From a virus (taxonomy: Duplodnaviria; Caudoviricetes): a stretch of 64,000 nt of DNA. The stretch's first letter is position 1; every line of letters begins with the position of its first letter. Below, one piece after another: positions 40,656 to 63,803 of this stretch. The notes under the pieces are model-generated. The model was not told where the DNA came from and did not search any database. It was given only the letters and a program-made list of their open reading frames with translations. Location of the stretch: the IMG/VR virus record IMGVR_UViG_3300044611_001018. One strand, given 5' to 3'. The translations under genes and the position numbers were made by a program.

Positions 40656-40779
40656 CCTCTTGGACCACTTCGACAACTGTCACAATCTGTTTATCTTCGT
40701 TGAGATAATTTGTTGTGATTTCATTCGGTCCTGTAATTACTTGACCGACAACGTATGCAACAAGCAAGGATTCAATCAT
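40636..40779 (-). CDS. Hypothetical protein (47 aa)
   Basis: MIESLLVAYVVGQVITGPNEITTNYL...; C-terminus reads through the dyad and promoter. Confidence 0.55.
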   Translation of the reverse strand: MIESLLVAYVVGQVITGPNEITTNYLNEDKQIVTVVEVVQEVDTARR

Positions 40780-40782
40780 GAT

Positions 40783-40923
40783 TCAATAATGATGGCGAGA
40801 CATGACACAGTTGGGGTCATTATACCAATCAGAATCTTCATAATCTTTGTATTCTGTTTCTTGATAATCTTCTTCCAACATTGTGGGCATTGGAATGTCG
40901 TTAACCCAGGTGATGTCAGTCAT
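40783..40923 (-). CDS. Small acidic protein (46 aa)
   Basis: MTDITWVNDIPMP...DWYNDPNCVMSRHHY. Confidence 0.6.
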   Translation of the reverse strand: MTDITWVNDIPMPTMLEEDYQETEYKDYEDSDWYNDPNCVMSRHHY

Positions 40924-40944
40924 GAATCTGTGTTGAACAAACGT

Positions 40945-40986
40945 AGTATGGAATGGATTGGGTCAGAAGTCAACCCCCTGACCCAT
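40945..40986 (-). promoter_or_regulatory. Promoter TTGACT-N17-CATACT (copy 1 of a repeated promoter)
   Basis: AGTATG 40945-50, AGTCAA 40968-73; AGTCAACCCCCTGACCCAT is identical to 41668-41686. Confidence 0.7.
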
Positions 40987-40998
40987 AAGGATTGGTTA

Positions 40999-41457
40999 TC
41001 AATCCAGGGTGAATCGCTCAACCCCCATCATGTCGTTATACTGTTGCAACATGGTTTTCAGGGTTTGACCAGCACGATCGAACGATTTCGTGATGACATC
41101 GTTATACTGATCGTAGTATGCAATTTGTCCATGAATACCCATTGCCGAAGCAACAGGATTCTTTCGGAACGATTGAATACCTGTAGCAGCAAGTTTGCGG
41201 TCAAAAACTTTTGCTTGACCGTTGAGAGTATAAGCGCACAGATACTCTTCAAACACAGGTGCAATTTCTTCCTTTGTAAAAGGAACACGCTTTTGATCCT
41301 CAATCGTCAGAGAATCAATTTGTTCTTGAATTGCTTTAGAAACTGCACGGAATCGAATCCGTTCTTCACGCTCATCAAAAGTGTTAATCATGCCAAATTG
41401 CATGACACTGTTGTAGTTGTCCTCGTAGAAGTTCAGATCTTCTTGAGTGAGAGTCAT
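40999..41457 (-). CDS. Hypothetical protein (152 aa)
   Basis: Co-directional ORF from the track. Confidence 0.7.
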   Translation of the reverse strand: MTLTQEDLNFYEDNYNSVMQFGMINTFDEREERIRFRAVSKAIQEQIDSLTIEDQKRVPFTKEEIAPVFEEYLCAYTLNGQAKVFDRKLAATGIQSFRKNPVASAMGIHGQIAYYDQYNDVITKSFDRAGQTLKTMLQQYNDMMGVERFTLD

Positions 41458-41488
41458 AATAAAGAAAAAAGTTGCGGTGGGTGAGCAA

Positions 41489-41620
41489 TCAAATCATACC
41501 ACGGCGACCGAGGTCTGCCCACACATGGGACGGGGCAGCAGCTGGCACACCAGTGGCGGTGGTGTTCTTGACCCATACCATTTGGCGGGTCTTGAGGTCG
41601 GAGGCGCAAACCAGAGTCAT
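41489..41620 (-). CDS. Hypothetical protein (43 aa)
   Basis: MTLVCASDLKTRQMVWV...; downstream of promoter 41645-41673. Confidence 0.55.
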   Translation of the reverse strand: MTLVCASDLKTRQMVWVKNTTATGVPAAAPSHVWADLGRRGMI

Positions 41621-41644
41621 GGGGTGTTCCCGTGAACTGATGTC

Positions 41645-41686
41645 AGTATGGGTCAGAACGGCAGCAAAGTCAACCCCCTGACCCAT
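41645..41686 (-). promoter_or_regulatory. Promoter TTGACT-N17-CATACT (copy 2)
   Basis: AGTATG 41645-50, AGTCAA 41668-73. Confidence 0.7.
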
Positions 41687-41695
41687 TAGCGTTTC

Positions 41696-41869
41696 TTATC
41701 CTTCCAGAAGTTCAGGATAGTATTCTTCACATTCAGTGATCAATTCTTCTTCAGAATACTTATCATAACCCTCCTCAAGATAATCATAACAAAGTTGGGT
41801 CATTGTCTTAAGGTCCATGTCATCCAACATCTGCTGAATAAGTGCAGTTTGAAGTTCAGAACGGTTCAT
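41696..41869 (-). CDS. Hypothetical protein (57 aa)
   Basis: MNRSELQTALIQQMLDDMDLKTM...EEYYPELLEG. Confidence 0.65.
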   Translation of the reverse strand: MNRSELQTALIQQMLDDMDLKTMTQLCYDYLEEGYDKYSEEELITECEEYYPELLEG

Positions 41870-41871
41870 GA

Positions 41872-42051
41872 TCAAAAACGAATGATAGGGTGGTCAAGAT
41901 CGAGGACATCACATTCCTCAGTTGAAAACACTAACTCTACACTTGCTTGATAATACTCATCGGGTTCATCTTCAGAGCAGATAGCAACATCCTGATTCAG
42001 TTGATCTTCACTAAGTTGTTGCAACTGTTCGAGCAGTTCTTTGTATTTCAT
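41872..42051 (-). CDS. Hypothetical protein (59 aa)
   Basis: MKYKELLEQLQQLSEDQLNQDV...VLDLDHPIIRF; ATGA overlap. Confidence 0.65.
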   Translation of the reverse strand: MKYKELLEQLQQLSEDQLNQDVAICSEDEPDEYYQASVELVFSTEECDVLDLDHPIIRF

Positions 42052-42263
42052 TGAAGAACGTGACGGTAATCGATGGACTTAATGCACCAACCTGATGCAG
42101 TAGAGATTTCCTCTACAAGGTCATCCTCATCATCAGCATCCCAGATTTGACCAACATAAACCTCATTGAGGCGTTCTTCAGTCATAATCTGGTCTGATTC
42201 ATCCCAACCCTCTTCATCATCAAGAGAGCAATCGAATTGAATTGAAGTGATTTGATACTTCAT
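42048..42263 (-). CDS. Hypothetical acidic protein
   Basis: 71 aa; WDADDEDDLVEEISTASGWCIKSIDY. Confidence 0.7.
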   Translation of the reverse strand: MKYQITSIQFDCSLDDEEGWDESDQIMTEERLNEVYVGQIWDADDEDDLVEEISTASGWCIKSIDYRHVLQ

Positions 42264-42344
42264 GATGTTCTGGTGGTGAACAAATGAATGATAGCGCGTG
42301 TGCGCGTCTCGTCGAGATTTTATGGACAGTTCACTGACTGTCCA

Positions 42345-42494: not shown

Positions 42495-42711
42495 TGGTGT
42501 AAGGTTTGAGAGTGATACGATCTGCCACACACATGATCAGTTCTGCTAGAATTTCATCATCAACTTGACCAAGTTTGTCAACAATGATGCCACCAATGTT
42601 GGTGTGAAGAAATTCAATCCAATCACATGTTTCTACAAGTTCTTCTGCAACTTCTTCAACAAGTGCTGCAGCAATTCTGTTGACTGATTTGTTAGAGAGT
42701 GACATGATCAA
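42487..42711 (-). CDS. Hypothetical protein
   Basis: 74-aa ORF overlapping its neighbours. Confidence 0.65.
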   Translation of the reverse strand: MIMSLSNKSVNRIAAALVEEVAEELVETCDWIEFLHTNIGGIIVDKLGQVDDEILAELIMCVADRITLKPYTNE

Positions 42712-42857
42712 CCCTCCCCTGCAATGTTCATTGCGTCAATGACCTTATCATAAAGATCAGAGACATCGCAACCCACACGCTCACTCACCTCATCCCAATC
42801 ATCATGGAAGGAGATTAAATCAGCAAGGGCACTGAGTTCGTTGATGGTGAAGTTCAT
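42708..42857 (-). CDS. Hypothetical protein (49 aa)
   Basis: MNFTINELSALADLISFHDDWDEVSERVG...; follows the TATACT -10 at 42880-85. Confidence 0.6.
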   Translation of the reverse strand: MNFTINELSALADLISFHDDWDEVSERVGCDVSDLYDKVIDAMNIAGEG

Positions 42858-42923
42858 TGGAGTGGTGTGAACTGAAGTCAGTATAAGGGGTGGAGGGGCG
42901 CCTGTGCGCCCCGTTGTGGACAG

Positions 42924-43388
42924 TTACGCTGCTGTCACATACCCAGGGATTTCGACACGCTCTACAGGTCCCCAACCAATCTTATATGCCTTCCAGTTAC
43001 CATTGAGGTCATACAGGTAAGCATACTCTTCGCCACCCATTTTACCAGAGACAAACATATCGAAGTCGGTGACATCTGGTTCATTATTCTCACCACGCTC
43101 TGAATGATACAGCGGTTGTGCATCACGAGTGTGGGAATAAGACCAACTGCCAGCATCATCTTCGATGATCTTGCCATTCTCATCACGAAGAGCAGCACTC
43201 TCCCACGTATGAGTTGTGCGAAGAGATGACATTGAACCACCGTCGATGAGATCTTGCACATCATCGCGGTTCTGATAATGATCTACCAGAATGCGACCGT
43301 TGCCTTCTACGTAACCATCCCAGTGGCAGTAAACGCTAACCACAGAATGGTCGGGGAGTTCGTAACCGATGCGTGAACGGGTTCCCAT
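42924..43388 (-). CDS. Conserved phage hypothetical protein
   Basis: 154 aa; MGTRSRIG...SVYCHWDGY...EEYAYLY. Confidence 0.8.
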   Translation of the reverse strand: MGTRSRIGYELPDHSVVSVYCHWDGYVEGNGRILVDHYQNRDDVQDLIDGGSMSSLRTTHTWESAALRDENGKIIEDDAGSWSYSHTRDAQPLYHSERGENNEPDVTDFDMFVSGKMGGEEYAYLYDLNGNWKAYKIGWGPVERVEIPGYVTAA

Positions 43389-43637
43389 GGGGTGTTGTGT
43401 TCAGGACTCCGCCAATATAACCGCTGCAGACCCACCCTGCAACCAACCAGTGGACTGTCCAAAAACTGGCACATCATCGGATTAATTCCGATCTTCTATG
43501 GTATCTTATAAGGACAACCAGCGCCCTTATAGGGAACGGCAGAGGGGTATCTGCCTGATCAATACATCGTCACTGAACCTGCAAACTTTTTTATAAAAAG
43601 TATACAAAAACATAAAAAGACCTTATGTGCCCCCACC

Positions 43638-44387: not shown

Positions 44388-45365
44388 CTATTTTAACCAT
44401 AATTTGTCAATTTTCATCCTATTTTCAAAGATATTATATCTTAATGCACAATGATGACTTTGAGGTGGTACAATGATTGGATTATAATAACCAGTGAATT
44501 CTCTATAACATTTTTTAAAATCTAATATATGTTCACCAGACCTTAAAAATGGATGAACTACAATCAAATAAGGTTCATCAGTCTCTGGTAATTTAAACTG
44601 AATGACACGATTTGATTGATAATGATCTGGATTATTTGCATCAAATATATGAACACCTATATGTTCAAATTGATGAGTTTGATAGATGTTTTGTAATGCA
44701 TTAATAACATTATTCTCATTAATTGGTTTATCCATAATATGTGTATAATGATGAAAATGACTTGATGATTGAATCACCTCATTATAATACTCAGCAAACT
44801 TAGGAGATAAACCAAGATCTAATGTTACACCTTCTGAGATACCTGGATTATGCTCAACATTAACCAAATGAGAATATTCTTTAGGTGTAAGTCTTACAAT
44901 ACTAAACTGAATGATATATTCAGATGGTAGCATTTTAAATGGCAATGGTACATCAAATGCTGTACCCATCATATCATTCCAAATATAAGACCCTACCAGT
45001 TCATGAAAGAGAATATCAATATCTTTGACATTATACGAATTAAATTTAGATGCAATAAACTCAGTATTAATGACTTCAATCTTTTTAGACAATCCCATTC
45101 TTTTTGCTACATTTTGAATATGTGCCGCAGACTTAGGATTTTGTTCAAAACACGTTACATGCTTTGCTCCATGCTTTAATGCTAAAAATGCTAATACACC
45201 ACTACCTGACCCTACATCAATGCAACGTTTACCCTTACACTCTTTAAGTATCTGATCATAATATCCTAAACGCATTGATTCATTGATCAATGCAATTCCG
45301 TTATACTGAGAACTCATTCTATTTTGTTGTCTCATTCTTAAACTATAATTCCGATCAAAGTCCAT
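44388..45365 (-). CDS. SAM-dependent methyltransferase, protein-arginine-methyltransferase-like
   Basis: Motif I IDVGSGSGVL, post-I HVTCFE, DILFHELVG, followed by a beta-rich C-terminus. Confidence 0.8.
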   Translation of the reverse strand: MDFDRNYSLRMRQQNRMSSQYNGIALINESMRLGYYDQILKECKGKRCIDVGSGSGVLAFLALKHGAKHVTCFEQNPKSAAHIQNVAKRMGLSKKIEVINTEFIASKFNSYNVKDIDILFHELVGSYIWNDMMGTAFDVPLPFKMLPSEYIIQFSIVRLTPKEYSHLVNVEHNPGISEGVTLDLGLSPKFAEYYNEVIQSSSHFHHYTHIMDKPINENNVINALQNIYQTHQFEHIGVHIFDANNPDHYQSNRVIQFKLPETDEPYLIVVHPFLRSGEHILDFKKCYREFTGYYNPIIVPPQSHHCALRYNIFENRMKIDKLWLK

Positions 45366-45633: not shown

Positions 45634-46023
45634 TTAATCCAATTTTGATACTATTTGATTACCATTGAAATGATTTTTCAATTTCATTACTTGATCTCTA
45701 AACTTATTTTCTGGACAACGCTGCCTACCCAAATTAAATAACCTCAAAGCAATAACAACATTATTGGGAATATAACCTTTAGATTCATCCAATCTTTCTA
45801 AACTAGGTGCAAGTGGATTATTCCTCTCATAAACACCGTAAGGGTCAATTGGATATTCAGTCCAATAGCATTTACCATTTTGTTGTTTATATTGTTTTAT
45901 AAGATAAAATTCATCTATACTAACATCTAATGGTTCTGTTCTTTTAATACCATTCTTTTTTTCTTGTCCAGGTCGGGCGGCAGTCTTTGCTTTTGCTATG
46001 AGAGTCTTCCAAGGATTTCTCAC
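45634..46023 (-). CDS. HNH-like endonuclease
   Basis: QQNGKCYWT...PSLERLDESKGYIPNNVVIALRLFNLG resembles the SxDRIDxxKGY..dNv..c...N HNH variant. Confidence 0.65.
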   Translation of the reverse strand: MRNPWKTLIAKAKTAARPGQEKKNGIKRTEPLDVSIDEFYLIKQYKQQNGKCYWTEYPIDPYGVYERNNPLAPSLERLDESKGYIPNNVVIALRLFNLGRQRCPENKFRDQVMKLKNHFNGNQIVSKLD

Positions 46024-47201
46024 ACCTTTACCTCAATCACTTGACTTGCACATTTACCACCAAAACCAAAACTATTGTTCACAGTCCTTAGAACCTTTGA
46101 TGTTGTCTTCAAATCACATGAAGTCCTTACAAGTTGCTTTGAGACATCATACTCTGCATTCTCCAAATTATAACATCCAGGAATCACACAATTCCTCATG
46201 GATAGGATAGAGTAAATACACTCCAATACAGATGCAGCAGCAAGTGTATGACCAATCTTTGACTTTGGTGCATAGATTGGAACATCAGGCAAATAATCTT
46301 GCAATACCTGATATTCAATCTCATCACCAATCGGTGTACTCGTAGCATGTGCAGAGATTGCATCAATTGTATCAGGTTCAATACCATCCAATGCCTTATC
46401 CAATGCAAGTTTTGCACCAACACCATTTGTTGCAGGACTTGTTAAATCAAATGCATCACTTGCACAACCAACAGGATATAACTTTGCATACACATTTGAA
46501 TCATATTGTTGTACTTTATCTTTTGATTGCAAAATTAAAATACCCGCGCCTTCTCCCATCACAAACCCTTCACGATTCTCATCAAAAGGACAATTGTGAT
46601 TACCCAGTGCGCCAATGCCTGCGAAATACTTCAATGCCATCTCAAATACACCAGCATCAGCACCACCTACCACAACATAGTCATACTCATCCAATATCCT
46701 CATTGCATAATCAATTGAATACATTCCAGTCGCACACGATGCATACAATGCCACTGATGCACCATGAAACTTATAATGACTCGTAATCTGACCTACAATC
46801 ATATCTGGAATACGATTGACAATCTTGAATGGATTCACTCTCTTATTCTCTTTAAACCGTTGGAAGTTACCATCAAGGAACTCCACATCATTAGAGACAC
46901 TTGATACAATCACGGCAACATTCGATGAGTGTTTTAGATTTGCCATCTTCAATGCCTGCTCAGTTGCATGAAGTGCCATCTGTTGCGCTCTGGTCATGTT
47001 AGCGGTTATTTTCGGCGTAAACGCCTCGGGAAGTAGAATATCATGCAAACATGGAATACCATACTGAATCTTATGCTCACCCATAAAATCAAGTTTCTGA
47101 ATCGGATTATAATCATTAATCATATTCAGAAAACAATTCCCAGGTCGATTACCCAATGCATCGACCATACCATAACCAACAACATAAGCAGGATTGACCA
47201 T
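46020..47201 (-). CDS. fabF: Beta-ketoacyl-ACP synthase (KAS II/I, thiolase fold)
   Basis: Catalytic Cys (ASCATG), His (ISAHATSTPIGD), His (KSKIGH); GEGAG; C-terminal NSFGFGG. Confidence 0.9.
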   Translation of the reverse strand: MVNPAYVVGYGMVDALGNRPGNCFLNMINDYNPIQKLDFMGEHKIQYGIPCLHDILLPEAFTPKITANMTRAQQMALHATEQALKMANLKHSSNVAVIVSSVSNDVEFLDGNFQRFKENKRVNPFKIVNRIPDMIVGQITSHYKFHGASVALYASCATGMYSIDYAMRILDEYDYVVVGGADAGVFEMALKYFAGIGALGNHNCPFDENREGFVMGEGAGILILQSKDKVQQYDSNVYAKLYPVGCASDAFDLTSPATNGVGAKLALDKALDGIEPDTIDAISAHATSTPIGDEIEYQVLQDYLPDVPIYAPKSKIGHTLAAASVLECIYSILSMRNCVIPGCYNLENAEYDVSKQLVRTSCDLKTTSKVLRTVNNSFGFGGKCASQVIEVKV

Positions 47202-48045: not shown

Positions 48046-48258
48046 TTATGACCCTCCGTAAACATAATCTATAATACCAGCAGCATGATTCACACCTTCG
48101 ATGATAGTGAACTTAGCATACCTGTCAAACTCATCAACATGATACTCACTAAACTCTTTGACAAACAACTCACGGGCGTGGTCTTTGGATTCAGCAGCAA
48201 GAACTACCATCCCACTGGTCCAGTCGGAGAGAATGTTGTTGATGATGTAAAGATTCAT
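48046..48258 (-). CDS. Hypothetical protein
   Basis: 70-aa ORF in an overlapping run. Confidence 0.65.
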   Translation of the reverse strand: MNLYIINNILSDWTSGMVVLAAESKDHARELFVKEFSEYHVDEFDRYAKFTIIEGVNHAAGIIDYVYGGS

Positions 48259-48446
48259 TTGATGTCGCCTTCAGCAATCAGACCCATGATTTCACGAGCA
48301 GTGGCAGCAAAGTTAATGTGGTCCTCAAGACCCTCTTTAGCATAAATGTCAAAGACATCAGACTCACGATAGGTGTCCATAATCAGAGCACAGGCATCAT
48401 ACAGAGCAGCGATGTGATGTGCCTTGGATTGGAATGAGAGTGCCAT
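48255..48446 (-). CDS. Hypothetical protein
   Basis: 63 aa; follows TATAAT at 48472-77. Confidence 0.65.
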   Translation of the reverse strand: MALSFQSKAHHIAALYDACALIMDTYRESDVFDIYAKEGLEDHINFAATAREIMGLIAEGDIK

Positions 48447-48484
48447 GGGGTGTTCCCTTGATTACTTTGTAATTATAGGGTGCC

Positions 48485-48619
48485 TCAGAACTCCCGCAGC
48501 AGTTCATGGGGCAGTTCTTCAACTGGCCACTCCTCATCCAGGAGAGCATCCAGTTCCATGTCAGTGTCAATCACGGAGCGCAGTTGGTGTTCGTTGTAAT
48601 CGTAATCCATGAGGTTCAT
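48485..48619 (-). CDS. Small acidic protein (44 aa)
   Basis: Manually translated MNLMDYDYNEHQLRSVIDTDMELDALLDEEWPVEELP...; follows TATAAT at 48637-42. Confidence 0.55.
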   Translation of the reverse strand: MNLMDYDYNEHQLRSVIDTDMELDALLDEEWPVEELPHELLREF

Positions 48620-48692
48620 AAGTTGACTACTTTTAAATTATAAGGGGTGCTTCAGCAAATCAAAGCGCCCAGTGTGCCAGTTATTGAATTGT

Positions 48693-48917
48693 CTATTTCT
48701 TCTCTGGTTTTGCTGCTGGTGGTGCAGTGTAAGGAACCTTACCAGTCTCATTATACATCAGAATGTCATATTTAAATTTACATTCCAATGGTTTTTGATT
48801 GCAAAGTTTAAGCGTATCTTGATGAGAACTATGTGTGCCTACATTACCACCCAATGCAAATCCGATTATACCAGCAAGGGCAAATCCAACATAAGAAACA
48901 TAATAAGTTTTAATCAT
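48693..48917 (-). CDS. Membrane-anchored hypothetical protein
   Basis: TM segment YVGFALAGIIGFALGG; CNQKPLECKFKYDILMY. Confidence 0.65.
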   Translation of the reverse strand: MIKTYYVSYVGFALAGIIGFALGGNVGTHSSHQDTLKLCNQKPLECKFKYDILMYNETGKVPYTAPPAAKPEKK

Positions 48918-48920
48918 AAT

Positions 48921-49304
48921 TCAATCCCAAGAAACATTTTGAAGAAGGAACCCAGGCATTACATATGTCCAGGAACCAGACTCTTGACTACCACCGACTT
49001 TATATTCCCACTTGTATTCGTACTTATTATGACTATCCCAAGTCATATATCCCTTCTCTTTATCAAATCGTCCTTTAATAGTGAGACCAAACTTATTAGA
49101 GAAGATATTGCGAGTACGCAATGCACCACCAGTCTCACGAGTTTCTACTACTTTACATGTGTCAGGATAGGTTTGAAGTCCTGCTTCAAGTACACATGGA
49201 GTTTCATATGCAAATGGACGATAGACCTTTGGTTTTGGTGGTGCATTCTGTGCAAATGCAGGTGCAGTCAACAGAAGAGATGCAAGAATTAGAAGTTTGT
49301 TCAT
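48921..49304 (-). CDS. Secreted hypothetical protein
   Basis: Signal peptide MNKLLILASLLLTAPAFA. Confidence 0.7.
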   Translation of the reverse strand: MNKLLILASLLLTAPAFAQNAPPKPKVYRPFAYETPCVLEAGLQTYPDTCKVVETRETGGALRTRNIFSNKFGLTIKGRFDKEKGYMTWDSHNKYEYKWEYKVGGSQESGSWTYVMPGFLLQNVSWD

Positions 49305-49498
49305 TTGTCCTTCAGTAGATTGTGATAATGTTGTACTTCTGAGTTTTCAAAATCTTTACATCGTGGATAGAATACACCATCTCGATAGCAAGACTTCTCT
49401 GGTTCATAGTAAACCTGAGATGATTTGGTGTAATTTCTCTCACAGACGTAAGTTCCATTCACACACAATTGCAAAAGAGTGAATAGTGTGGAGTACAT
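49301..49498 (-). CDS. Hypothetical protein
   Basis: TAATG overlap with the RlpA stop; CYRDGVFYPRC. Confidence 0.6.
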   Translation of the reverse strand: MYSTLFTLLQLCVNGTYVCERNYTKSSQVYYEPEKSCYRDGVFYPRCKDFENSEVQHYHNLLKDK

Positions 49499-49806
49499 TA
49501 TACCACAACTCTCCAACAAACAGTAGCATTACCTCTTTTAGAAGATTCGATGTGAGCAAATGCAGCGTAACTCAAATCCAAATCAGCATGTGAGTAAGGA
49601 CCACGGTCATTCACTCTCACAATTACTTGTTTACCATTATCTTGATTGGTCACTCGTATGCGTGTACCCATAGGTAGATAAGGATGAGCTGCAGTCCAAC
49701 GATAAGCATTAAACCGCTCACCATTTGCCGTAATTTGTCCATGAAATCCATCTCCAATTCCATAAAAAGTGGCGATACCACAAGCAAGACCAGCAATGAT
49801 TGACAT
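49498..49806 (-). CDS. rlpA: RlpA-family lytic transglycosylase (DPBB domain)
   Basis: ATFYG...TANGERFN...TAAHPYLPMGTRIRVTN..NGK.VIVRVNDRGPY...DLS. Confidence 0.85.
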   Translation of the reverse strand: MSIIAGLACGIATFYGIGDGFHGQITANGERFNAYRWTAAHPYLPMGTRIRVTNQDNGKQVIVRVNDRGPYSHADLDLSYAAFAHIESSKRGNATVCWRVVV

Positions 49807-49886
49807 GTTTGGTGAATGAGGCATAAGCATCATAACCTCACCAGAGGTGCCTACGTGCCCCTGTGTGCCACTTGTTTTGCTGTCTA

Positions 49887-50090
49887 CTATAGATTCTCCA
49901 GTTCCTCTGCTATTTTGAACATCTCTTGGGCAGTCTTAAGATTCATTTGTGGGCACTCATCAATTAAGGTCCGAACAAATGCTGCCAATGCTTTTGCACC
50001 TATTTTATCTTTCTTATCATGAGTTGTTCTGAGTAGAGTATTCATAGAATTTAAATACTCTTGCTCTAATCTTTTTGCTCTGCTTGACAT
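49887..50090 (-). CDS. Hypothetical protein
   Basis: 67-aa ORF directly after the GT11 stop. Confidence 0.6.
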   Translation of the reverse strand: MSSRAKRLEQEYLNSMNTLLRTTHDKKDKIGAKALAAFVRTLIDECPQMNLKTAQEMFKIAEELENL

Positions 50091-50091
50091 T

Positions 50092-51231
50092 TTAACTGAC
50101 AACTGTAAATGAACGTTGGTCGGGATTCTCTAATCCTATGTAGTGTGGTTTATCAAAAAATAATGCTGCAAGATCTCTAGTTTGGTCATAACCATCAAGA
50201 TCGATTTTAATAGCACCTAATCCAATCTCTGCAAAGGCATTTCTAGTATCCTCATCATGCCCTTGCATCCAATATTTTGGATAGATAACTTTCTTACTAT
50301 TAGATAATTCTACGCCCCACATACCAAAAGAACTATTTGCTGCAATATGATAATCACACATAGACATCAAGCATAGTTCAAATGAATAATTATACAAATT
50401 ATTTGCAATTTTCTCTTTATATGTTGGATGCAATTCTTTTACAAGTCTCACCATCTCTTGATTCAATTCTTCTTGAGTTGGAGTAGATGGCATCAAATTA
50501 TCATAGGCATGTTTAGCTAATGCTACTTTGTAATCAAATCTACATTCTCCAGAAGCATCTACTAACCTATCCAATTCTTGACCAACATCACAATTAATTA
50601 ATTCATTATCGTTGAATATATCAAGAACAAACGTAAATCTTTCTGGATCACTTGCTGTTAAAATTGGATTTGTTAGAATATAATCTTTAACGTTACAAAA
50701 GATTAGAACTGGGATGTTTGGTGGCAGTAATTCCAATGCCTCTTTATAATAATCATCATCAATTAAAAACATTCCAGATCTAATATCTTCAAAATCACCT
50801 CTACGAAGATGCATTGAGATTACTTCTTGACCATCAAACTTTGACATAAACTGACGGCATTTATCCACAACTTCTGGTCTAAACCGCAATTCTTTTTTAA
50901 CAGATTCAAAATTAATAGAATCAACCATACTTTTAACAGTAGGATACCCATATAATTCACAGTTGTCCTCTACCATTGCAACAACTTCTTCAAAAGAATG
51001 GTCATCCAAAAACTCAATGGACTTTAAATCAGCATCAAGTTCATCTTTAATACTGTTAAATTGCAAATTAGTAAATGTATTTCTAAGTGCCTTTAATCCA
51101 TTTGTATTGATAGTATAACTATACCCTGTTCTATTTGCAATAGAACGCATCAATACATATGAAGATATCTGGTATCCCAATCCAGTTCCAGTAGCAGCAA
51201 ATTCTTGATGATATTTAATCATATTGCACAA
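50092..51231 (-). CDS. Glycosyltransferase family 11 (alpha-1,2-fucosyltransferase-like)
   Basis: GTGLGYQ, SMHLRRGD, DYYKEA, IAANSSFGMWG motifs of GT11. Confidence 0.8.
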   Translation of the reverse strand: MCNMIKYHQEFAATGTGLGYQISSYVLMRSIANRTGYSYTINTNGLKALRNTFTNLQFNSIKDELDADLKSIEFLDDHSFEEVVAMVEDNCELYGYPTVKSMVDSINFESVKKELRFRPEVVDKCRQFMSKFDGQEVISMHLRRGDFEDIRSGMFLIDDDYYKEALELLPPNIPVLIFCNVKDYILTNPILTASDPERFTFVLDIFNDNELINCDVGQELDRLVDASGECRFDYKVALAKHAYDNLMPSTPTQEELNQEMVRLVKELHPTYKEKIANNLYNYSFELCLMSMCDYHIAANSSFGMWGVELSNSKKVIYPKYWMQGHDEDTRNAFAEIGLGAIKIDLDGYDQTRDLAALFFDKPHYIGLENPDQRSFTVVS

Positions 51232-51249
51232 ATTATCCAGTGTTACTAT

Positions 51250-52038
51250 TTAGAAATATATCTCCCAAACTCCATCACACTTGACCCCATGCCCCTGTAG
51301 TGTGATTCTACGGTCATTCAATGACAAATTATATGCAGGTGCAATTTGGTGTTGAAGTGGACCAATAAAATAGAACATTTTACCTGGAATATAAGGAATC
51401 ACTGTTGGTGTTCCATATGCACCATATTCAAGTGATTTAATTGCTTTGGAATAATCATCATTGATTTCATAGCATTTAATTGCATCTTCATTCCAAGTAT
51501 TAAGACCAGCACCAGTTTTAGGAACTTCTAAACATAGAGTGAATGACAAACAATTTTCAAGGTCTACCTCACCATATTGACTCCATACTGATTTATGCTT
51601 TTCTTGTTGAAGATCTACATGAATAGTTGCACTTGGACGTTCCATGTATTCTTTTGTTGCTACTTTTGGTTCCTCTCCAGGTTTACAACCAAATATATGG
51701 AATCCAGGATATGCTAAAGAATCATTTAACCGACAGGGACCAATCTCATAATAGATGTGATATACAATGGTATCATACAACCAACCAAAATATTCTTTAA
51801 GTAAAGGATTGGTCTGCATTGTCATCATAGTATACATCTGAGTATTGAGCATACAATCAATATATGTTGCAGGACCCAAAGTATAAAAATCCACTGGATT
51901 CTCAGCATCATGAGAGAATCCAGTGTTAGCAGAGTAAATCCCCCTTGGAATCCACCAATTACTCAATAAATCAATTCTTTCCAATGCCGCATCGATTCTT
52001 TCTTTATCTAATACATCCAGATATCCTGCCGTTATCAT
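51250..52038 (-). CDS. 2OG-Fe(II)-dependent oxygenase-like protein
   Basis: HxD (IHVD), SFTL, distal His (QHQI) and RITLQGH. Confidence 0.7.
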   Translation of the reverse strand: MITAGYLDVLDKERIDAALERIDLLSNWWIPRGIYSANTGFSHDAENPVDFYTLGPATYIDCMLNTQMYTMMTMQTNPLLKEYFGWLYDTIVYHIYYEIGPCRLNDSLAYPGFHIFGCKPGEEPKVATKEYMERPSATIHVDLQQEKHKSVWSQYGEVDLENCLSFTLCLEVPKTGAGLNTWNEDAIKCYEINDDYSKAIKSLEYGAYGTPTVIPYIPGKMFYFIGPLQHQIAPAYNLSLNDRRITLQGHGVKCDGVWEIYF

Positions 52039-53041: not shown

Positions 53042-53064
53042 TTTTGTAGTTAAAGAACTCCTTA

Positions 53065-53093
53065 ATTGTAAAAGAAAAGAATCGTGATGTCAA
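53065..53093 (-). promoter_or_regulatory. Sigma70-type promoter TTGACA-N17-TACAAT
   Basis: Plus strand ATTGTA 53065-70 and TGTCAA 53088-93. Confidence 0.75.
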
Positions 53094-53272
53094 GCAGCAA
53101 ATTCTACATTAAACTGCTCACACCACTCATTGTACTCATCCAAGCAACCATGCTCCATAGCATCCATCTCCTCATAGGTGTATGGACGCTCTTCAAGGGT
53201 CAGCAGCATACCAGTTGTAGGACACTGCCACAGACCAGAGGTGTAGAGATCAAGGTGTTGTTGGATGGTCAT
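53090..53272 (-). CDS. Hypothetical protein
   Basis: MTIQQHL...; follows TATAAT at 53296-301. Confidence 0.6.
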   Translation of the reverse strand: MTIQQHLDLYTSGLWQCPTTGMLLTLEERPYTYEEMDAMEHGCLDEYNEWCEQFNVEFAA

Positions 53273-53340
53273 TGGAATCTCTTGAGTACCCACTCATTAT
53301 AGGGGTGATTCCACCCCAATCTGGGGTGGTGTGTGCCAGT

Positions 53341-53778
53341 TTACAGACCTGTCCACACCCTTCCAGTGTCACACATGAATGTGAGTAGATACTTCTCTTC
53401 ATTTTCATGTGCTTCTACTTCATGAGGTTGATTGGAGTAATCCATCTCCTCAACATTGATTCCCCTGTAAATTCTATTGCCACCACGAAGACGCAGTGTG
53501 CCATCAACCCATTGTTTTACATGGATAAGTTCATGCAAAAGCGTAAGCGCATACAATCTTTTATTCATGTTAGATTGCAGTTCAATTAAGAATGTGCGTG
53601 GATTGCGTTCTCCACCTTCAATATCACAATATCCATATGCACATTCACGCTTCATGCCACGATGAGTGACTGTAATATCAATCTTATGACGAGGATAAAA
53701 TTTGGTGATAAACCAAACTAAAATATCTTCGCATAGTTTTTTATGGGCACCATACCCATTGATTTCATAGTAAAACAT
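53341..53778 (-). CDS. Zincin-like metallopeptidase (HExxH)
   Basis: LLHELIHVKQW...PHEVEA. Confidence 0.7.
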   Translation of the reverse strand: MFYYEINGYGAHKKLCEDILVWFITKFYPRHKIDITVTHRGMKRECAYGYCDIEGGERNPRTFLIELQSNMNKRLYALTLLHELIHVKQWVDGTLRLRGGNRIYRGINVEEMDYSNQPHEVEAHENEEKYLLTFMCDTGRVWTGL

Positions 53779-53863
53779 TAAAAATCACCTGCGTAAGACG
53801 GGTTCCCCAATGCATGAGCCAAATGAATGACCCAATAAAAATGAGTTTGTCAGTCTTTGTCAT
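53765..53863 (-). CDS. Small hydrophobic protein (32 aa)
   Basis: MTKTDKLIFIGSFIWLMHWGTRL... Confidence 0.45.
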   Translation of the reverse strand: MTKTDKLIFIGSFIWLMHWGTRLTQVIFNVLL

Positions 53864-53950
53864 GTTTGTGCTCATCAAGGTAATTAAAGAATGGGGAGAA
53901 TAGTACGAATCCTCCCCATGCAAATCCTGCAAGGATAATCAGTGCATAAA

Positions 53951-54400
53951 TCATCGTGCGTAAAGATAACCACCTGCCCAATCACAATTTGCAAGAGCAT
54001 TCTCACGTTGCTCAATGATACGCAAATCATAGCGAACTCCCTTAGCAGGTGCCTTCCAAGATGCAGACTTGTAGAGTTCACCAGTCTTGCGATCTACAAA
54101 AGCATGAACAGAACGAGAACCACCACCATCAATCATAATGATTTTGTGATACTTCTTACCACTTTCAATCACATAATCAATGTCAGACTTGCCAGACTTG
54201 AGTTCATCAATCTTACGTTGATGATACTCATGAGTGTCAGCATCAGTGCCAACAAACTTCTGATGTCCACGGACAGCATACTCCCTATAGTTGTCCTTGA
54301 GAGCATCAATCAACATGTAGCACCACTTGGTCACGTTGAGTTGAATGGTGTTACGAGCATCCTGCTCAGCAACAAACTGATCGAAGGTGGAAGCAGTCAT
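53951..54400 (-). CDS. Conserved cyanophage hypothetical protein
   Basis: GKKYHKII...SVHAFVD..TG..YK.ASWKAPAKGVRYDL. Confidence 0.8.
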   Translation of the reverse strand: MTASTFDQFVAEQDARNTIQLNVTKWCYMLIDALKDNYREYAVRGHQKFVGTDADTHEYHQRKIDELKSGKSDIDYVIESGKKYHKIIMIDGGGSRSVHAFVDRKTGELYKSASWKAPAKGVRYDLRIIEQRENALANCDWAGGYLYAR

Positions 54401-54437
54401 GAGAGGTGTTTGTTTGAACTGAAATCAGTATAATGGG

Positions 54438-54575
54438 TCAGATAACTCCCGATGTGTAATGCTGTGACGGTTTTTCAACTGGCACACTCTCACGGGACGA
54501 ACCAACATTCCATGTAAACACGGTATGAACCATCATACCAATAGTCACAAAGAATACAAATTTAATTACCTTCAT
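54438..54575 (-). CDS. Small membrane protein (45 aa)
   Basis: Manually translated MKVIKFVFFVTIGMMVHTVF...VPVEKPSQ; reads through the dyad. Confidence 0.5.
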   Translation of the reverse strand: MKVIKFVFFVTIGMMVHTVFTWNVGSSRESVPVEKPSQHYTSGVI

Positions 54576-54748: not shown

Positions 54749-54971
54749 CTTCTGCATTTGTAGGACTCTCTGATATTACTACCTGAGTCGGTTCCTCGTC
54801 AACGGTAGGTGGACACTCTTGAGATTGTCCCAACAACTCATTACATCTTTTCATAATACAATCAATAAAATCCTGTTCAGTCCATGTGTTAAACATAGAT
54901 TCTAGTGGATCATTCTCATCCCATGATATTGTAAATGATCCATCTTGTTCTTCTTTAACATCAATTGCCAT
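54723..54971 (-). CDS. Hypothetical protein
   Basis: IDVKEEQDGSFTISWDENDP...WTEQDF. Confidence 0.65.
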   Translation of the reverse strand: MAIDVKEEQDGSFTISWDENDPLESMFNTWTEQDFIDCIMKRCNELLGQSQECPPTVDEEPTQVVISESPTNAEDETLSSGS

Positions 54972-60089: not shown

Positions 60090-60283
60090 TTCAGTTCCTC
60101 CAGTTCATTCGCAAGTTCAAGAATGTTCTTTTCAGTAATACCAATCCACTTGAGTTCTTCTACAACTTTACGAAGAGTAGCAACAGCAATAGTATGAGGA
60201 TGAGATTGTTCCATATCACCCCAGTCAAATCTCACTTCTTCAATAGCATCTGCGACTGCTTGTGCCTCTTTAGTCATTTTCAT
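60086..60283 (-). CDS. Hypothetical protein
   Basis: 65 aa; ends ELANELEELK. Confidence 0.65.
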   Translation of the reverse strand: MKMTKEAQAVADAIEEVRFDWGDMEQSHPHTIAVATLRKVVEELKWIGITEKNILELANELEELK

Positions 60284-60284
60284 T

Positions 60285-60497
60285 TCAGTTGTCCTCTATC
60301 AAACGAATGTTGTCTTCAATCTCACCTCTCATATCATAAAAATACGATTTTCCCCTATCAAGAATAAAAGTATCATAATCTTCTTGGGTTGGTTCATCTT
60401 CCATTTCCATATCCTTCCAAACTTCCAAGAAATCTTCAACAGACATATGGTATTCCAGAGGAATGTATGCGACTTTGGGAATGATGTGGTTAGTCAT
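60285..60497 (-). CDS. Hypothetical acidic protein
   Basis: 70-aa ORF in the junction-repeat run. Confidence 0.65.
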   Translation of the reverse strand: MTNHIIPKVAYIPLEYHMSVEDFLEVWKDMEMEDEPTQEDYDTFILDRGKSYFYDMRGEIEDNIRLIEDN

Positions 60498-60679
60498 TTC
60501 AGTCCAATCAGTTTAGAAAATTCAGGAGTAATGGTGAGGTTTTGTTCTCTTACAAGATTACGAACTTCTTTACGAAGATTTATCCACTTGTTGTAGTAAT
60601 CTTGTGATGCTTTTTGTGCTCTGTTTTTAGCATCAAAGTCGCACTGGTGTTCGTAGGTTCTACTTTCGTAGTATCTCAT
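60494..60679 (-). CDS. Hypothetical protein
   Basis: 61-aa ORF in the junction-repeat run. Confidence 0.6.
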   Translation of the reverse strand: MRYYESRTYEHQCDFDAKNRAQKASQDYYNKWINLRKEVRNLVREQNLTITPEFSKLIGLK

Positions 60680-60879
60680 TTCAGTTCTTGGAGGACAGAG
60701 ATAAAGGTTTCAAGGCAATCTTTGGGAATGTGAAAAGGTTCCCCCGTTTTAGTTTCTTCAATTCCGTGAGATGTGTATTGATTAATCTCTACAAGACCTT
60801 GACCATCATCAGTAAGTTGGTAGAACCAATCATCTTCAATGTTGTGAATACGAAGTTGTCGGGTGATTTGGTAAGTCAT
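60676..60879 (-). CDS. Hypothetical protein
   Basis: 67 aa; DWFYQLTDDGQG. Confidence 0.65.
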   Translation of the reverse strand: MTYQITRQLRIHNIEDDWFYQLTDDGQGLVEINQYTSHGIEETKTGEPFHIPKDCLETFISVLQELK

Positions 60880-61106
60880 TTGATAGTCACCGTTTGATTT
60901 TTGATTTGGCAAAGACGGGAAAGATTATCACCCGCAGTAGCAACTTGAAGGAAGTTGTAGTTAGTTCCACATTGCTCGTTGAGTGCTTTCTGAGTTGTGA
61001 GGACCTGCATGACCCCTGTGATGGGGGCAGCAAGAAGAACCAAAACAATACCACCAGTAATCACAGCAATCCAAGCATCCGTAAAATCAAAGTTGTTGCG
61101 TTTCAT
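60876..61106 (-). CDS. Membrane-anchored protein
   Basis: TM helix; ALNEQCGTNYNFLQVATAGDNLSRLCQ. Confidence 0.7.
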   Translation of the reverse strand: MKRNNFDFTDAWIAVITGGIVLVLLAAPITGVMQVLTTQKALNEQCGTNYNFLQVATAGDNLSRLCQIKNQTVTIK

Positions 61107-61115
61107 TTCAGTTCC

Positions 61116-61445
61116 TCAAAATTGATGTTTAATTTCTTCTTCTGTTGCTATCTCCACAATAGGATAACTCATATCTTCATAAGCACCAAAATCAAAATCA
61201 GTACTCAATCTTGAGGCAACATTATCGCACAGATAATCAGCAAAAATTCCTGGGTCAAGTTCTCCATCATCTGTAAGCATATCATCATCCTTATGCTTTT
61301 CGGGGTCAAACCTCACATAAAAAGTTACTTTATAACCTTTTAGATTTTCCAAAGCATCATTTACCTTCTGCTGTTCCTTATGCTTTTGGATTTGAAGTTC
61401 AAGTTCGTTGAGTTGTTCTTTGGTCAGTTGTGAAAGGTCAATCAT
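61116..61445 (-). CDS. Hypothetical protein
   Basis: 109 aa; follows TATAAT at 61469-74. Confidence 0.7.
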   Translation of the reverse strand: MIDLSQLTKEQLNELELQIQKHKEQQKVNDALENLKGYKVTFYVRFDPEKHKDDDMLTDDGELDPGIFADYLCDNVASRLSTDFDFGAYEDMSYPIVEIATEEEIKHQF

Positions 61446-61515
61446 CAGGTGTCTGTGTGTATGAGAGTATTATAAGGCATCCAGAGACACCCAGAGCATC
61501 CCATGTGCCAGTTCA

Positions 61516-61671
61516 TCAAGTGTCCTCACCCAAGTTCTTATAAATCGCATCCATCCATATCTTATCAATATATTTTCTATCTTCATCAGTAATCATATTT
61601 GCTCTCATATACTCTTCAAATGTAATGTTATTATCATCCAAGTATTTTTGAATTTCTTCAATACTATACAT
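61516..61671 (-). CDS. Hypothetical protein (51 aa)
   Basis: Manually translated MYSIEEIQKYLDDNNITFEEYMRAN...; stop lies inside the dyad spacer. Confidence 0.6.
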   Translation of the reverse strand: MYSIEEIQKYLDDNNITFEEYMRANMITDEDRKYIDKIWMDAIYKNLGEDT

Positions 61672-61945
61672 CCAAATAAACCTCAAAGGTGAGTTTATTC
61701 ATATGGTCTCCAAATTCCATATTCATACTTACTACCTGTGCTTTTCCTGTTTGGATTTGTCCTGCTACTTGTTGAAATGATGCTTTCAAGTCATCAAGGT
61801 CATAAGATTTGATTATTGGAGGTTTTGATTTCTTCAGTTCATCTGCGAATGTTTCTTCACCCTCATAATCTTCTATTCTTGGAAGTTTTGGTTTCTCTTT
61901 CTTTCCGTAGATTTCATTATATTTGTCTATAAGAGGATTAGTCAT
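61664..61945 (-). CDS. Hypothetical protein
   Basis: 93-aa ORF. Confidence 0.65.
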   Translation of the reverse strand: MTNPLIDKYNEIYGKKEKPKLPRIEDYEGEETFADELKKSKPPIIKSYDLDDLKASFQQVAGQIQTGKAQVVSMNMEFGDHMNKLTFEVYLDV

Positions 61946-62163
61946 TTTCGTTCCTCATAAGTCGTTTCACCCACACAGGTTTTTCCTTTCCACATTCTAC
62001 CACAAGAACCACAAGAAACCTCAAAAGTCGTTGTGTTTCTATCAGGATTGATATTCACTCCGTTCTTATCATAGATTGGAATGTATGCTACAAGAGTTGT
62101 CATTCCAAAACTTTGAGTAAATCTACAATCCTCTCTGGGACATTCTGGATTTGGGTTTCTCAT
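61942..62163 (-). CDS. Zinc-ribbon-like protein
   Basis: CPREDC...CGSCG. Confidence 0.7.
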   Translation of the reverse strand: MRNPNPECPREDCRFTQSFGMTTLVAYIPIYDKNGVNINPDRNTTTFEVSCGSCGRMWKGKTCVGETTYEERK

Positions 62164-62363
62164 CCTGCCACATCTCCACTCACTACAATAGGTTCTACAT
62201 CACCACAGACAACTTCTGCTTTCATTTGTTCCATAATAATAGACACCTTATCCATAACTCTTTCTCTGGTTTCTTGTGTCCAAATACTATTTCCAACGAC
62301 ACTCAAACTTTTATAAAGAGTGTTGTGAATTACCATAAGGTCTGCTGCTGATAGTTTAGTCAT
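62160..62363 (-). CDS. Hypothetical protein
   Basis: 67 aa; ATGA overlaps. Confidence 0.65.
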   Translation of the reverse strand: MTKLSAADLMVIHNTLYKSLSVVGNSIWTQETRERVMDKVSIIMEQMKAEVVCGDVEPIVVSGDVAG

Positions 62364-62530
62364 TTCTCATCCTTTCGTGGGTCTTTACCTTTATGCCAAA
62401 TCGTATGAAGTTCATCAACACGATTTTCCCAAATTATACTATCTACAATATAGTCATATGGGGTTTCATAAGTGTCTTCATACACTTCTCTAATGAAGAT
62501 AGATTTATTTACTGATTGGGGGTATTTCAT
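62360..62530 (-). CDS. Hypothetical protein (56 aa)
   Basis: Manually translated MKYPQSVNKSIFIREVYEDTYETPYDYIVD...; ATGA overlaps on both sides. Confidence 0.6.
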   Translation of the reverse strand: MKYPQSVNKSIFIREVYEDTYETPYDYIVDSIIWENRVDELHTIWHKGKDPRKDEK

Positions 62531-62769
62531 TCTTCATATTCTCCCAGTCTATAAAATGCTCTAAAACCTTTAGCAAGAGCACCTTCTGGTAAGTCCCGAT
62601 AATCTGGGTCAGAATGTTGAATCATTCCCAAAATTTGGGTTGCTGTTTCTACTGGGTCTGGGATTTCTCCACTCCATTTTACAAGAGACCCACCATCTCC
62701 ACCAATATGTTCTAAAAGATGAACCATTACTTTTTCCCAAGAATTATTAGGCAAATCACTGAACTTCAT
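62527..62769 (-). CDS. Hypothetical protein
   Basis: 80 aa; follows TATAAT at 62793-98. Confidence 0.65.
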   Translation of the reverse strand: MKFSDLPNNSWEKVMVHLLEHIGGDGGSLVKWSGEIPDPVETATQILGMIQHSDPDYRDLPEGALAKGFRAFYRLGEYEE

Positions 62770-62849
62770 AGGGTTTCTTTGTATATAAGAGTATTATACA
62801 CCAAAGGGCACCCAATTTCAAGTGCCCTTGTTCCAGTTTATAAAGTGTC

Positions 62850-63803
62850 CTATGATATTCTGCGTCTATTACTCTTGGATGTATCTATTCCTTTTCCTTT
62901 TTGATAAGAAACTACACCAGCAGCAGTTGATACATAACCAGTTATACAACATTCCCATCTTTGTGCGTTTATAATCTTTGAAGAAATAGAACCACCTTTT
63001 TTAGCATTTTCTACCAACTGCTCTGTTGTTAGTGCGAATATACCGACCTTATTTTCTTTATTTTTAGCAGAAACTTTCTTTCCATTTTCACTTCTCTGTT
63101 CGGCAGACAATCCAAAAAGTCCAGTTCCATTTTTCCTATTTACTTCTGCTGCCTTTTTACCATTTTCTCTTCTTTGTTCCGTTGTTAGTGCGAATATAGC
63201 AGTTTTATTTTTCATATGATTTTGTGCGGTTTTCTTACCATTTTCACTCATTTGTTCTTTTGTTAGAGTGAATATTCCCAGTCCAAGTTCTTTATTTTTT
63301 TGTCCTCCTATTTTTCCAGATTTTTTACTATATTCTCTCCTTTGTTCTGGTGTTATTGAGTATATACCTGTTTTATTCTTCCTGTTGGTCTTATCTGCCT
63401 TTTTCGCATTTATAACTCTTTGTTCTTTGGAAAATCCACATATACCAGTTCCAGTTTTTTTACGATTATTACCAGATTTTTTACCATTTTCAATTGCCTG
63501 TTCTTTTGTTGGAAAATAAGAAAATCCAGTACAAGTTTGTTTTGCCCTATTAGCAAAATGTGGATTTTTATCTACTTCAAAATAATCGTGTAAAATTACT
63601 TCATCTAATATTGCTTCTGTTCTTGTAGCATAATCATCTTTGAGTATTATTTTTTGAGTTGGTTTGAATGTTTTATCACCAAAAGAACCGAAATACTTTA
63701 CATCTTCTTTGGGTAAGCATCTACAAGTTCTTGAACCAAAATAACCTCTACCCCATTCTTCATAGGAATAATAGGTATAATGATACTCTTTTGGAGTTTC
63801 CAT
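62850..63803 (-). CDS. Free-standing GIY-YIG (Seg-like) homing endonuclease with C-terminal repeats
   Basis: YHYTY..YEEWGRGYFGSR...YFGSF...A..DE...H...F.N (GIY-YIG variant), then six GI(F/Y)xLTxEQxxENxKK repeats. Confidence 0.8.
   Translation of the reverse strand: METPKEYHYTYYSYEEWGRGYFGSRTCRCLPKEDVKYFGSFGDKTFKPTQKIILKDDYATRTEAILDEVILHDYFEVDKNPHFANRAKQTCTGFSYFPTKEQAIENGKKSGNNRKKTGTGICGFSKEQRVINAKKADKTNRKNKTGIYSITPEQRREYSKKSGKIGGQKNKELGLGIFTLTKEQMSENGKKTAQNHMKNKTAIFALTTEQRRENGKKAAEVNRKNGTGLFGLSAEQRSENGKKVSAKNKENKVGIFALTTEQLVENAKKGGSISSKIINAQRWECCITGYVSTAAGVVSYQKGKGIDTSKSNRRRIS

Follow-up and report, generated by a model that had tools for sequence, protein, structure and literature searches.

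Putative promoter cassettes of a freshwater T4-like cyanophage carry the half-sites of the host PlmA element in swapped order

Introduction

T4-like cyanophages account for the death of a large share of the picocyanobacteria in oceans and lakes. Doron et al. reportedly described in 2016 a novel early-gene regulatory element in the phages Syn9 and P-TIM40, which is said to be abundant among T4-like cyanophages; the same study reportedly ties the element to the early genes and has the middle genes under host-like promoters. The protein that reads this early-gene element has, to our knowledge, never been named. The searchable literature names no binding factor for it, and in the open full-text literature we found no paper describing the element. 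Here we analyze a stretch of viral DNA of 64,000 nucleotides (nt) (IMG/VR record IMGVR_UViG_3300044611_001018; hereafter the window, meaning the whole stretch), in which a dyad of 22 base pairs (bp) recurs at a nearly fixed distance upstream of a -10 box. An earlier note, made from the letters of the window, had listed 11 copies of this unit and interpreted them as an undescribed-looking promoter class with middle-type timing.

A related element is known from the hosts. CGRE1 is a palindrome of the promoters of the yfr2 small RNA (sRNA) genes in Prochlorococcus and marine Synechococcus, and the site is described in prose (Lambrecht et al. 2018, PMC6191309). The GntR-family protein PMM1637 (PlmA) was pulled down by CGRE1, its shift in the electrophoretic mobility shift assay (EMSA) was lost with R50A, and it activates a CGRE1 promoter in a reporter (PMC6191309). 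PlmA is dimeric, and a cell has about 200 dimers of it under any nitrogen regime; the protein is essential in S. elongatus, occurs in all cyanobacteria and nowhere else, and is sequestered by PII-PipX (PMC5083789). We found no paper in the searchable literature that ties CGRE1 or PlmA to phages.

Two promoter systems of T4-type phages are also comparable in part. The promoter-early stem-loop (PeSL) cassettes, reportedly described by Arbiol et al. in 2010, contain complete sigma-70 promoters, including the -35 box, and are not known to have an upstream dyad. The middle promoters of T4, which depend on MotA and AsiA, keep the -10 box, lack the -35 box, and need an activator; the MotA box is a non-palindromic 9-bp sequence at -30, recognized by a phage protein that acts with AsiA.

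Results and discussion

Architecture of the cassettes

All 11 dyads listed in the earlier note were confirmed in position and sequence, and the gaps from the dyad to the minus-strand TAnnnT hexamer (29, 29, 31, 31, 30, 31, 30, 31, 31, 30, and 31 nt) were reproduced exactly. To these we added a 12th copy at 41527-41548, with a gap of 28 nt and the hexamer TATGAT. Along the minus strand, the unit starts with the 22-bp dyad, after which come 29-31 nt of GC-rich spacer and a sigma-70-type -10 hexamer. In most copies an ATG lies about 23 nt beyond the hexamer, and for 8 of the 12 the distance to the first ATG falls within 22-26 nt. The dyad has the consensus T-GTGnCAGTT-N4-AACTGnCAC-A and is an imperfect palindrome. 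The -10 boxes are all on the coding strand, and the hexamer of the 11 listed copies is TATAAT in five and has one mismatch to TATAAT in five more. TTGACA is present at the 40662 copy only, as had been noted, and this is the single -35 box among the 12 copies.

When we scored the window with leave-one-out matrices, eight of the ten sites with a 4-nt central spacer outscored all non-site positions of the 64 kilobases (kb), the exceptions being 49865 and 62830, above which two non-site positions scored. Positions of at least 15 bits numbered 12 in the window and about 0.2 per shuffled window. A -10-like hexamer lies in the right 4-nt window at 11 or all of the 12 dyads (binomial P ≤ 2e-12). No position above 12 bits was found within the structural region (1-36000), in agreement with the earlier remark that no copies were noticed in the late region. 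We consider it very probable that the repeated units are promoter cassettes, and the earlier view of them as promoters without a -35 box that head small accessory genes is supported.

The cassettes resemble the two T4-type systems only partly. With PeSLs they have in common a repeated early promoter and an adjacent stem-loop which punctuate hyperplastic regions of small open reading frames (ORFs), and they also show hints of cassette-to-cassette joints in relatives. However, they lack the -35 box, are defined by a protein-binding dyad, and contain a hairpin in under half of the copies. Whereas each PeSL copy has a complete sigma-70 promoter and a stem-loop, we found a -35 box in 1 of 12 copies and a significant hairpin in 5 of 11. 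Of the GC hairpins described earlier for the spacers, only those five are significantly stable, although all spacers are GC-rich. With the MotA-dependent promoters the cassettes share the presence of the -10 box and the absence of the -35 box. However, their element is a 22-bp palindrome centered near -53, which spans about -64 to -43, and the -30 region, where the MotA box replaces the -35 box, is a variable GC-rich spacer.

The behavior of the dyad itself is that of a protein-binding site. Across 62 cassettes from six phage sequences, the complementarity across the dyad was 0.631, compared with 0.640 expected when the right halves are dealt randomly, and the four combinations at the ambiguous position 4/19 occurred in the proportions expected of independent halves. 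Since the halves vary independently toward one consensus, the dyad is the site of a symmetric DNA-binding protein and not a base-paired RNA, which supports the earlier proposal of a dimeric factor bound near -53. Given the missing covariation, an RNA-level role of the dyad was rejected. The wider idea that the unit is an RNA-level hairpin terminating or processing read-through, or a recombination module shuffling genes like PeSL cassettes, is extremely unlikely. It is favored by the GC hairpins in the five spacers and by RNA-library contigs of related strains that join cassettes to other places, but no compensatory variation was found, the sequence itself and not just its pairing is conserved, and the -10 box follows at a constant distance. 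Moreover, the joints have short matching sides (21-31 nt) and may arise from repeats, and repeated promoters may lead to shuffling as a by-product without this being their function.

The contigs in question come from lake and river libraries and lead from one cassette to the next or into a different gene; they join 48488 to 54466, 48480 to 48668, 60497 to 61460, and 60091 to 61456, and at a joint from 61486 back to 60498, a further dyad is present within the inserted letters. With such short matching sides, they give only a hint that the cassettes serve as break points for gene shuffling.

Half-sites shared with host CGRE1

We refer to the two half-sites as H (AACTGnCAC) and R (GTGnCAGTT). The host sites were located via the Rfam RF01701 (Cyano-1/Yfr2) genes, the family having been found by scanning the spot of a Yfr2-type motif in Synechococcus WH7803. 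In four marine Synechococcus genomes, the C/G-flanked palindrome AACTGnCAC-N1-GTGnCAGTT was present at 6 of 12 yfr2 copies. Small-genome relatives, probably Prochlorococcus, have the same halves with a 2-nt center. The freshwater Synechococcus UW140 has a perfect copy of the host palindrome, and WH7803 has exactly one in 2.37 Mb. The host palindrome is 21 or 22 nt long with CAAC/GTTG flanks 13-14 nt apart, and its proximal end lies near -55 or near -20; a CGRE1 near -20 is described in MIT9313 (PMC6191309). Since the length, flanks, near-uniqueness, and positions fit the published description, we took these host palindromes to be CGRE1. We also tried CGRE1 in the form GTTG...GTGnCAC...CAAC and rejected it; this form was not enriched in the host genomes and gave three unrelated repeated loci without an Rfam match.

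Comparison of the phage dyads with CGRE1 revealed that their half-sites are the same. First, the half-site frequency matrices of host and phage were correlated with r = 0.95, a value that was not reached in 20000 permutations, and both allow A or C at position 4 and prefer G over C at position 7. Second, the phage dyads carry the CGRE1 half-sites AACTGnCAC(A) / (T)GTGnCAGTT, and the base outside each phage half (T before, A after) is the center base of CGRE1. Third, a matrix built from host sites only, when run over the phage cassettes, matched at two offsets, 0 and 13, and had no other match within 100 nt. Finally, with this host-only matrix R-N4-H was the sole arrangement enriched in all six phage sequences, with 9, 9, 26, 9, 13, and 13 sites, while other arrangements and spacings gave mostly 0-4 and at most 7 sites per sequence; the nine best host-matrix hits of the window are cassette dyads, and the best of them is the dyad at 54464-54485 (27.6 bits). 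The dyad is a conserved site of a two-fold symmetric protein and its halves are the half-sites of the host PlmA element, which is a known box, while the earlier note had found no match to those of NtcA, CRP, and T4 MotA. The boxes of NtcA, CRP, LexA, Fur, SufR, HrcA/CIRCE, and RpaB were considered and discarded on sequence or geometry.

Two observations on the host side were made during this comparison. Three yfr2 copies without CGRE1 in marine Synechococcus (L217, L224, and L225) have a single half-site about 60 nt before the RNA, within a conserved AGGACAGTTGA..GAGCGCC block that could represent a second kind of control region. At a locus of a 2.9-Mb genome (L273 in G057), a perfect CGRE1 with a 2-nt center lies about 45 nt upstream of a Yfr1/Yfr10-like CCTCACAC motif, which is not a Cyano-1 match; PlmA control may extend beyond yfr2.

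Half-site order and register

CGRE1, which is an activator site in the host, and the phage dyad are both palindromes of an identical 9-10-nt half-site, including the ambiguous positions, and both are followed by a -10 box without a -35 box. However, detailed comparison revealed several differences. First, the half order is H-N1/2-R in the host and R-N4-H in the phage, and the swapped order places the self-symmetric TGnCA cores 15 bp apart in the phage compared with 10 bp in the host. Second, the host site is centered near -65 and the phage dyad near -53. Third, CGRE1 is present in one to few copies per host genome, before sRNA genes, while the phage has a dozen or more dyads before protein-coding genes. 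The host arrangement (H-N1/2-R of 21-22 nt with CAAC/GTTG flanks) is not that of the phage sites and was not enriched in any phage examined, its few hits lying in coding repeats and appearing chance-like. Conversely, the phage-type dyad was not enriched in the four marine Synechococcus genomes, with 4-8 matches vs 17-24 for the control. A matrix scan of the whole WH7803 genome gave 23-24 weak hits; the top four lie inside long open frames, and at 28-32 nt from the hits no -10 box was present. In P-TIM40, one cassette (50286-50317; L241) has an extra upstream half and reads H-N1-R-N4-H, so that a host-type and a phage-type site are joined in one.

The distance from the R half to the -10 box is nearly the same in phage and host. 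It is 42-44 nt in 11 of the 12 phage copies and 45 nt in the copy at 53333, which has a 5-nt central spacer; in four host promoters the R half stands in the same orientation at 42-43 nt, with no -35 box. The phage cassettes thus share with CGRE1-type promoters a site placed at a set distance before the -10 box, with the -35 box missing. A second class of host promoters, found at some marine Synechococcus yfr2 genes, has a gap of 7 nt, and CGRE1 overlaps the -35 region there.

This second class is relevant to the idea that the dyad is a shut-off operator, through which a repressor (PlmA or a middle protein of the phage) silences constitutive promoters driven by the -10 box later in infection. 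Palindromes beside promoters are often repressor sites, and the overlap with the -35 region at a gap of 7 nt is typical of a repressor. Nevertheless, the phage dyad at about -64 to -43 lies outside the polymerase footprint on -10-only promoters, and 11 of the 12 promoters have no -35 box, so an activator should be needed. In addition, the spacing is held within 1 nt, as in activation from one face of the helix, and PMM1637 activates at CGRE1 in the reporter. We consider a shut-off role improbable.

PlmA as the candidate factor

Exactly one GntR-family gene was found in each of five picocyanobacterial genomes, which represent marine, freshwater, and small-genome types, and 60 of the 62 residues of the winged-helix domain of this host protein are invariant among the five. 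On the phage side, no GntR domain was found in the five complete cyanomyovirus genomes of Syn9, P-TIM40, S-CRM01, P-HM2, and S-PM2, nor in a 61-kb fragment (G001) whose aligned part is identical to the window at 40000-42332, the search not covering the window at 42333-64000. We give about an even chance to the reading that the -35-less early promoters are activated by host PlmA via the dyad. The broader proposal seems to us evenly balanced as well, namely that T4-like cyanophages might hijack PlmA for their early genes through swapped CGRE1 half-sites in register with PlmA-activated host promoters.

Several points weigh against activation by PlmA. A canonical GntR dimer cannot fit both arrangements without re-oriented DNA-binding domains, and the flanks of the phage dyads contain no cryptic outer half-sites that would make two host-type sites. 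The yfr5 promoter, which keeps one CGRE1 half, was unbound in the EMSA (PMC6191309), and single half-sites are therefore probably insufficient. The phage-type arrangement is used nowhere in WH7803, so there is no host precedent for it. Furthermore, the match to the 2016 early element is drawn from what that study reportedly describes and from the presence of the cassette in Syn9 and P-TIM40.

The same features bear on the reading that the dyad is read by another factor, which could be a virion-delivered or very early phage protein or a different host protein, with the likeness to CGRE1 being mimicry of PlmA or competition with it. The swapped order and the 15-bp spacing of the cores are unlike the host mode, the arrangement is missing from the WH7803 genome, and one CGRE1 half does not suffice for PlmA in the EMSA. 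However, none of the six phage sequences searched for GntR domains encodes a winged helix of this type, and it is difficult to see how a match over 9-10 nt, down to the ambiguous positions, could arise unless both sites are read by the same DNA-binding domain. Since the R half is also in register with the host promoters and each host genome has one GntR protein, we regard another factor as rather unlikely.

If PlmA is the activator, the pre-existing host protein would bind the dyad near -53 on the injected phage DNA and direct the host's RNA polymerase holoenzyme to a promoter that has just a -10 box, and the small early genes would be transcribed without any new phage protein. The swapped halves might be bound by one dimer, with its DNA-binding domains re-oriented on flexible linkers, or by two dimers, each of them on one good half. 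Because PlmA is universal, essential where tested, and near-invariant in its DNA-binding domain, such promoters would work in any host, and for the same reasons loss of PlmA would not be an easy route of escape for the host. Since PII-PipX sequesters PlmA, early transcription might follow the carbon/nitrogen and energy state of the cell.

Activation by PlmA, if true, would name the missing factor behind the early element of cyanophages and would tie the start of infection to PII-PipX-PlmA signaling of carbon/nitrogen and energy. It would also mean that one GntR dimer reads inverted and everted repeats alike. The use of one promoter type in Prochlorococcus, marine Synechococcus, and freshwater hosts would be explained, as would the difficulty that hosts have in evading it, and early infection could depend on light and nutrient state. 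The identity of the half-sites makes the PlmA question directly testable with existing reagents, that is, recombinant PMM1637, R50A, and the green fluorescent protein (GFP) reporter.

The same cassette in other cyanophages

A half-site matrix made from the window alone gave 8-18 dyads per 100 kb in Syn9, S-CRM01, P-TIM40, P-HM2, and S-PM2, compared with 1.0 per 100 kb in the host WH7803. The histogram of gaps to the -10 box peaked at 29-31 nt in each of the five phages, while none of the WH7803 dyads found with this matrix had a -10 box at that distance. A pattern search gave 8 matches in Syn9 against 2 for controls and 6 in P-TIM40 against 2 for controls. In Syn9 the cassettes precede small genes, for example gp55, gp68, and gp75, and the distance from the hexamer to the ATG is 21-22 nt. 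Sites in the Syn9 genome include those at 43114, 44775, 47205, 48559, 49079, 51001, 52997, 127493, 130354, and 148743. S-CRM01 is a freshwater phage that carries the cassette.

Since the cassette, with its gap of 29-31 nt, is present in Syn9, P-TIM40, and the three other cyanomyoviruses, it is not a new promoter class, and the earlier description as undescribed-looking has to be dropped. We take it to be the early element of Doron et al. The phage group is the same in both cases, as is the order of the dyad, about 30 nt, the -10 box, about 22 nt, and the ATG before small genes. The two sets differ in that the 2016 element was defined in Syn9 and P-TIM40 while the window set belongs to an uncultured lake-water phage. 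The window adds a freshwater member to an already known type of cassette.

The timing of these cassettes was also reconsidered. Because the half-sites point to a host factor that is present before infection, early timing fits rather than middle timing, and the published class is reportedly early. For the cassettes of the window, early expression would fit this pattern, and the middle-type timing proposed in the earlier note is unsupported. That proposal holds that a newly made phage factor activates the promoters after the early phase, and activator-dependent promoters without a -35 box do formally resemble the MotA-dependent ones of T4. However, motA/asiA and middle promoters of the T4 type are reported to be missing from T4-like cyanophages (PMC5780444). 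Moreover, the driven genes are small ORFs without known function in a hyperplastic region, which is typical of early genes, and the half-sites are those of a protein already in the host. We find a middle-type system very unlikely.

Individual cassettes

The 12 cassettes, all on the minus strand and each at the head of a single gene or short operon, are numbered here from the right end of the window. Cassette 1 (62793-62851) is composed of the dyad at 62830-62851, a 31-nt spacer with a hairpin, and TATAAT at 62793-62798, and it heads an ORF of 80 amino acids (aa) at 62527-62769 with no known function. In cassette 2 (61469-61526), the dyad at 61505-61526 is separated by 30 nt from TATAAT at 61469-61474, and the ORF at 61116-61445 (109 aa) likewise has no known function. 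RNA-library contigs cover this gene downstream of cassette 2, although metatranscriptome contigs placed on the window cannot reveal starts or strand. Cassette 3 (54427-54485; dyad 54464-54485, gap 31, TATACT) heads an ORF at 53951-54400 that encodes a DUF7717 protein. The copy with the 5-nt central spacer is cassette 4 (53296-53355), in which the dyad at 53333-53355 is followed by a gap of 31 nt with a strong hairpin, TATAAT, and an ORF of 60 aa at 53090-53272.

Cassette 5 (49829-49886) has its dyad at 49865-49886, a gap of 30 nt, and TATGAT, and the ORF that it heads ends at 49498 and encodes a DPBB_1 (RlpA-like) protein. Two neighboring units carry TATAAT: cassette 6 (48637-48695; dyad 48674-48695, gap 31) before an ORF of 44 aa at 48485-48619, and cassette 7 (48472-48529; dyad 48508-48529, gap 30) before an ORF of 63 aa at 48255-48446. 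A hairpin fills the 31-nt gap of cassette 8 (43414-43472; dyad 43451-43472, TATATT), which heads the ORF at 42924-43388 (154 aa, phrog_1987), and a strong GC hairpin lies in the 31-nt gap of cassette 9 (42880-42938; dyad 42917-42938, TATACT), which heads the ORF at 42708-42857 (49 aa).

The dyad of cassette 10 (42288-42344), at 42323-42344, is complementary at 8 of 9 positions and is followed by a gap of 29 nt, TATCAT, and an ORF at 42048-42263 (71 aa, phrog_2460). Cassette 11 (41493-41548) is the added copy with the dyad at 41527-41548, and it heads an ORF of 152 aa at 40999-41457. Cassette 12 (40627-40683), with the dyad at 40662-40683 and a gap of 29 nt, has a weak -10 hexamer, TAATCT, with its TTGACA box at a spacing of 17 nt, and heads an ORF of 70 aa at 40344-40556. 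A possible degenerate 13th copy was found at 54810-54831 on the minus strand; it lies inside an ORF, has TAATAT at a gap of 31 nt with TTGACG upstream of the hexamer, and scores low with the host matrix. The leaders, taken as the 16 nt before the ATGs behind the cassettes, are short and C-rich, and AACACCCC stands directly 5' of the ATG twice; no Shine-Dalgarno sequence is visible in these 16 nt.

The variant with a 2-nt spacer that had been noted at 38854 does contain half-site elements, but it is not a promoter cassette, as there is no -10 box at the cassette distance. Read on the minus strand, 38854-38882 has a perfect R half with a partial half-site 1 nt before it and a partial H half 2 nt after it. 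No -10 box was found at 28-32 or 42-44 nt; instead, a G6/C7 hairpin comes next. At 38854-38930, three half-site-like elements are clustered and then followed by the G6...C7 hairpin, and this cluster may be a promoterless PlmA-type site or a decayed cassette.

Phage and gene context

The window has a G+C content of 35%, and the minus strand carries all of its long ORFs. It belongs to the T4-like cyanomyoviruses, as its large terminase is T4-like with 79% identity to the terminases of the cyanomyoviruses S-SM2 and P-TIM68, and its DNA matches lead to the S-RIM and Syn1 cyanophages. Since the same DNA was found in many lake-water metagenomes, the source is an uncultured freshwater T4-like cyanophage. 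The part from 36 to 64 kb is made of densely packed small minus-strand ORFs, and the cassette region is the hyperplastic small-gene region of this phage.

The first ORFs behind the cassettes encode small proteins without known function together with the DUF7717 and the DPBB_1 (RlpA-like) proteins. Longer units headed by cassettes include a methyltransferase, a beta-ketoacyl synthase, and a family-11 glycosyltransferase. On the minus strand, a beta-ketoacyl synthase with both KAS domains is encoded at 46020-47201, a class I methyltransferase at 44388-45365, and a family-11 glycosyltransferase at 50092-51231, and these three genes of the accessory region are unusual for a cyanophage. The structural region contains two giant minus-strand ORFs, one of 4287 aa at 19835-32698 and the other of 2551 aa at 10552-18207, which presumably encode fiber or baseplate proteins.

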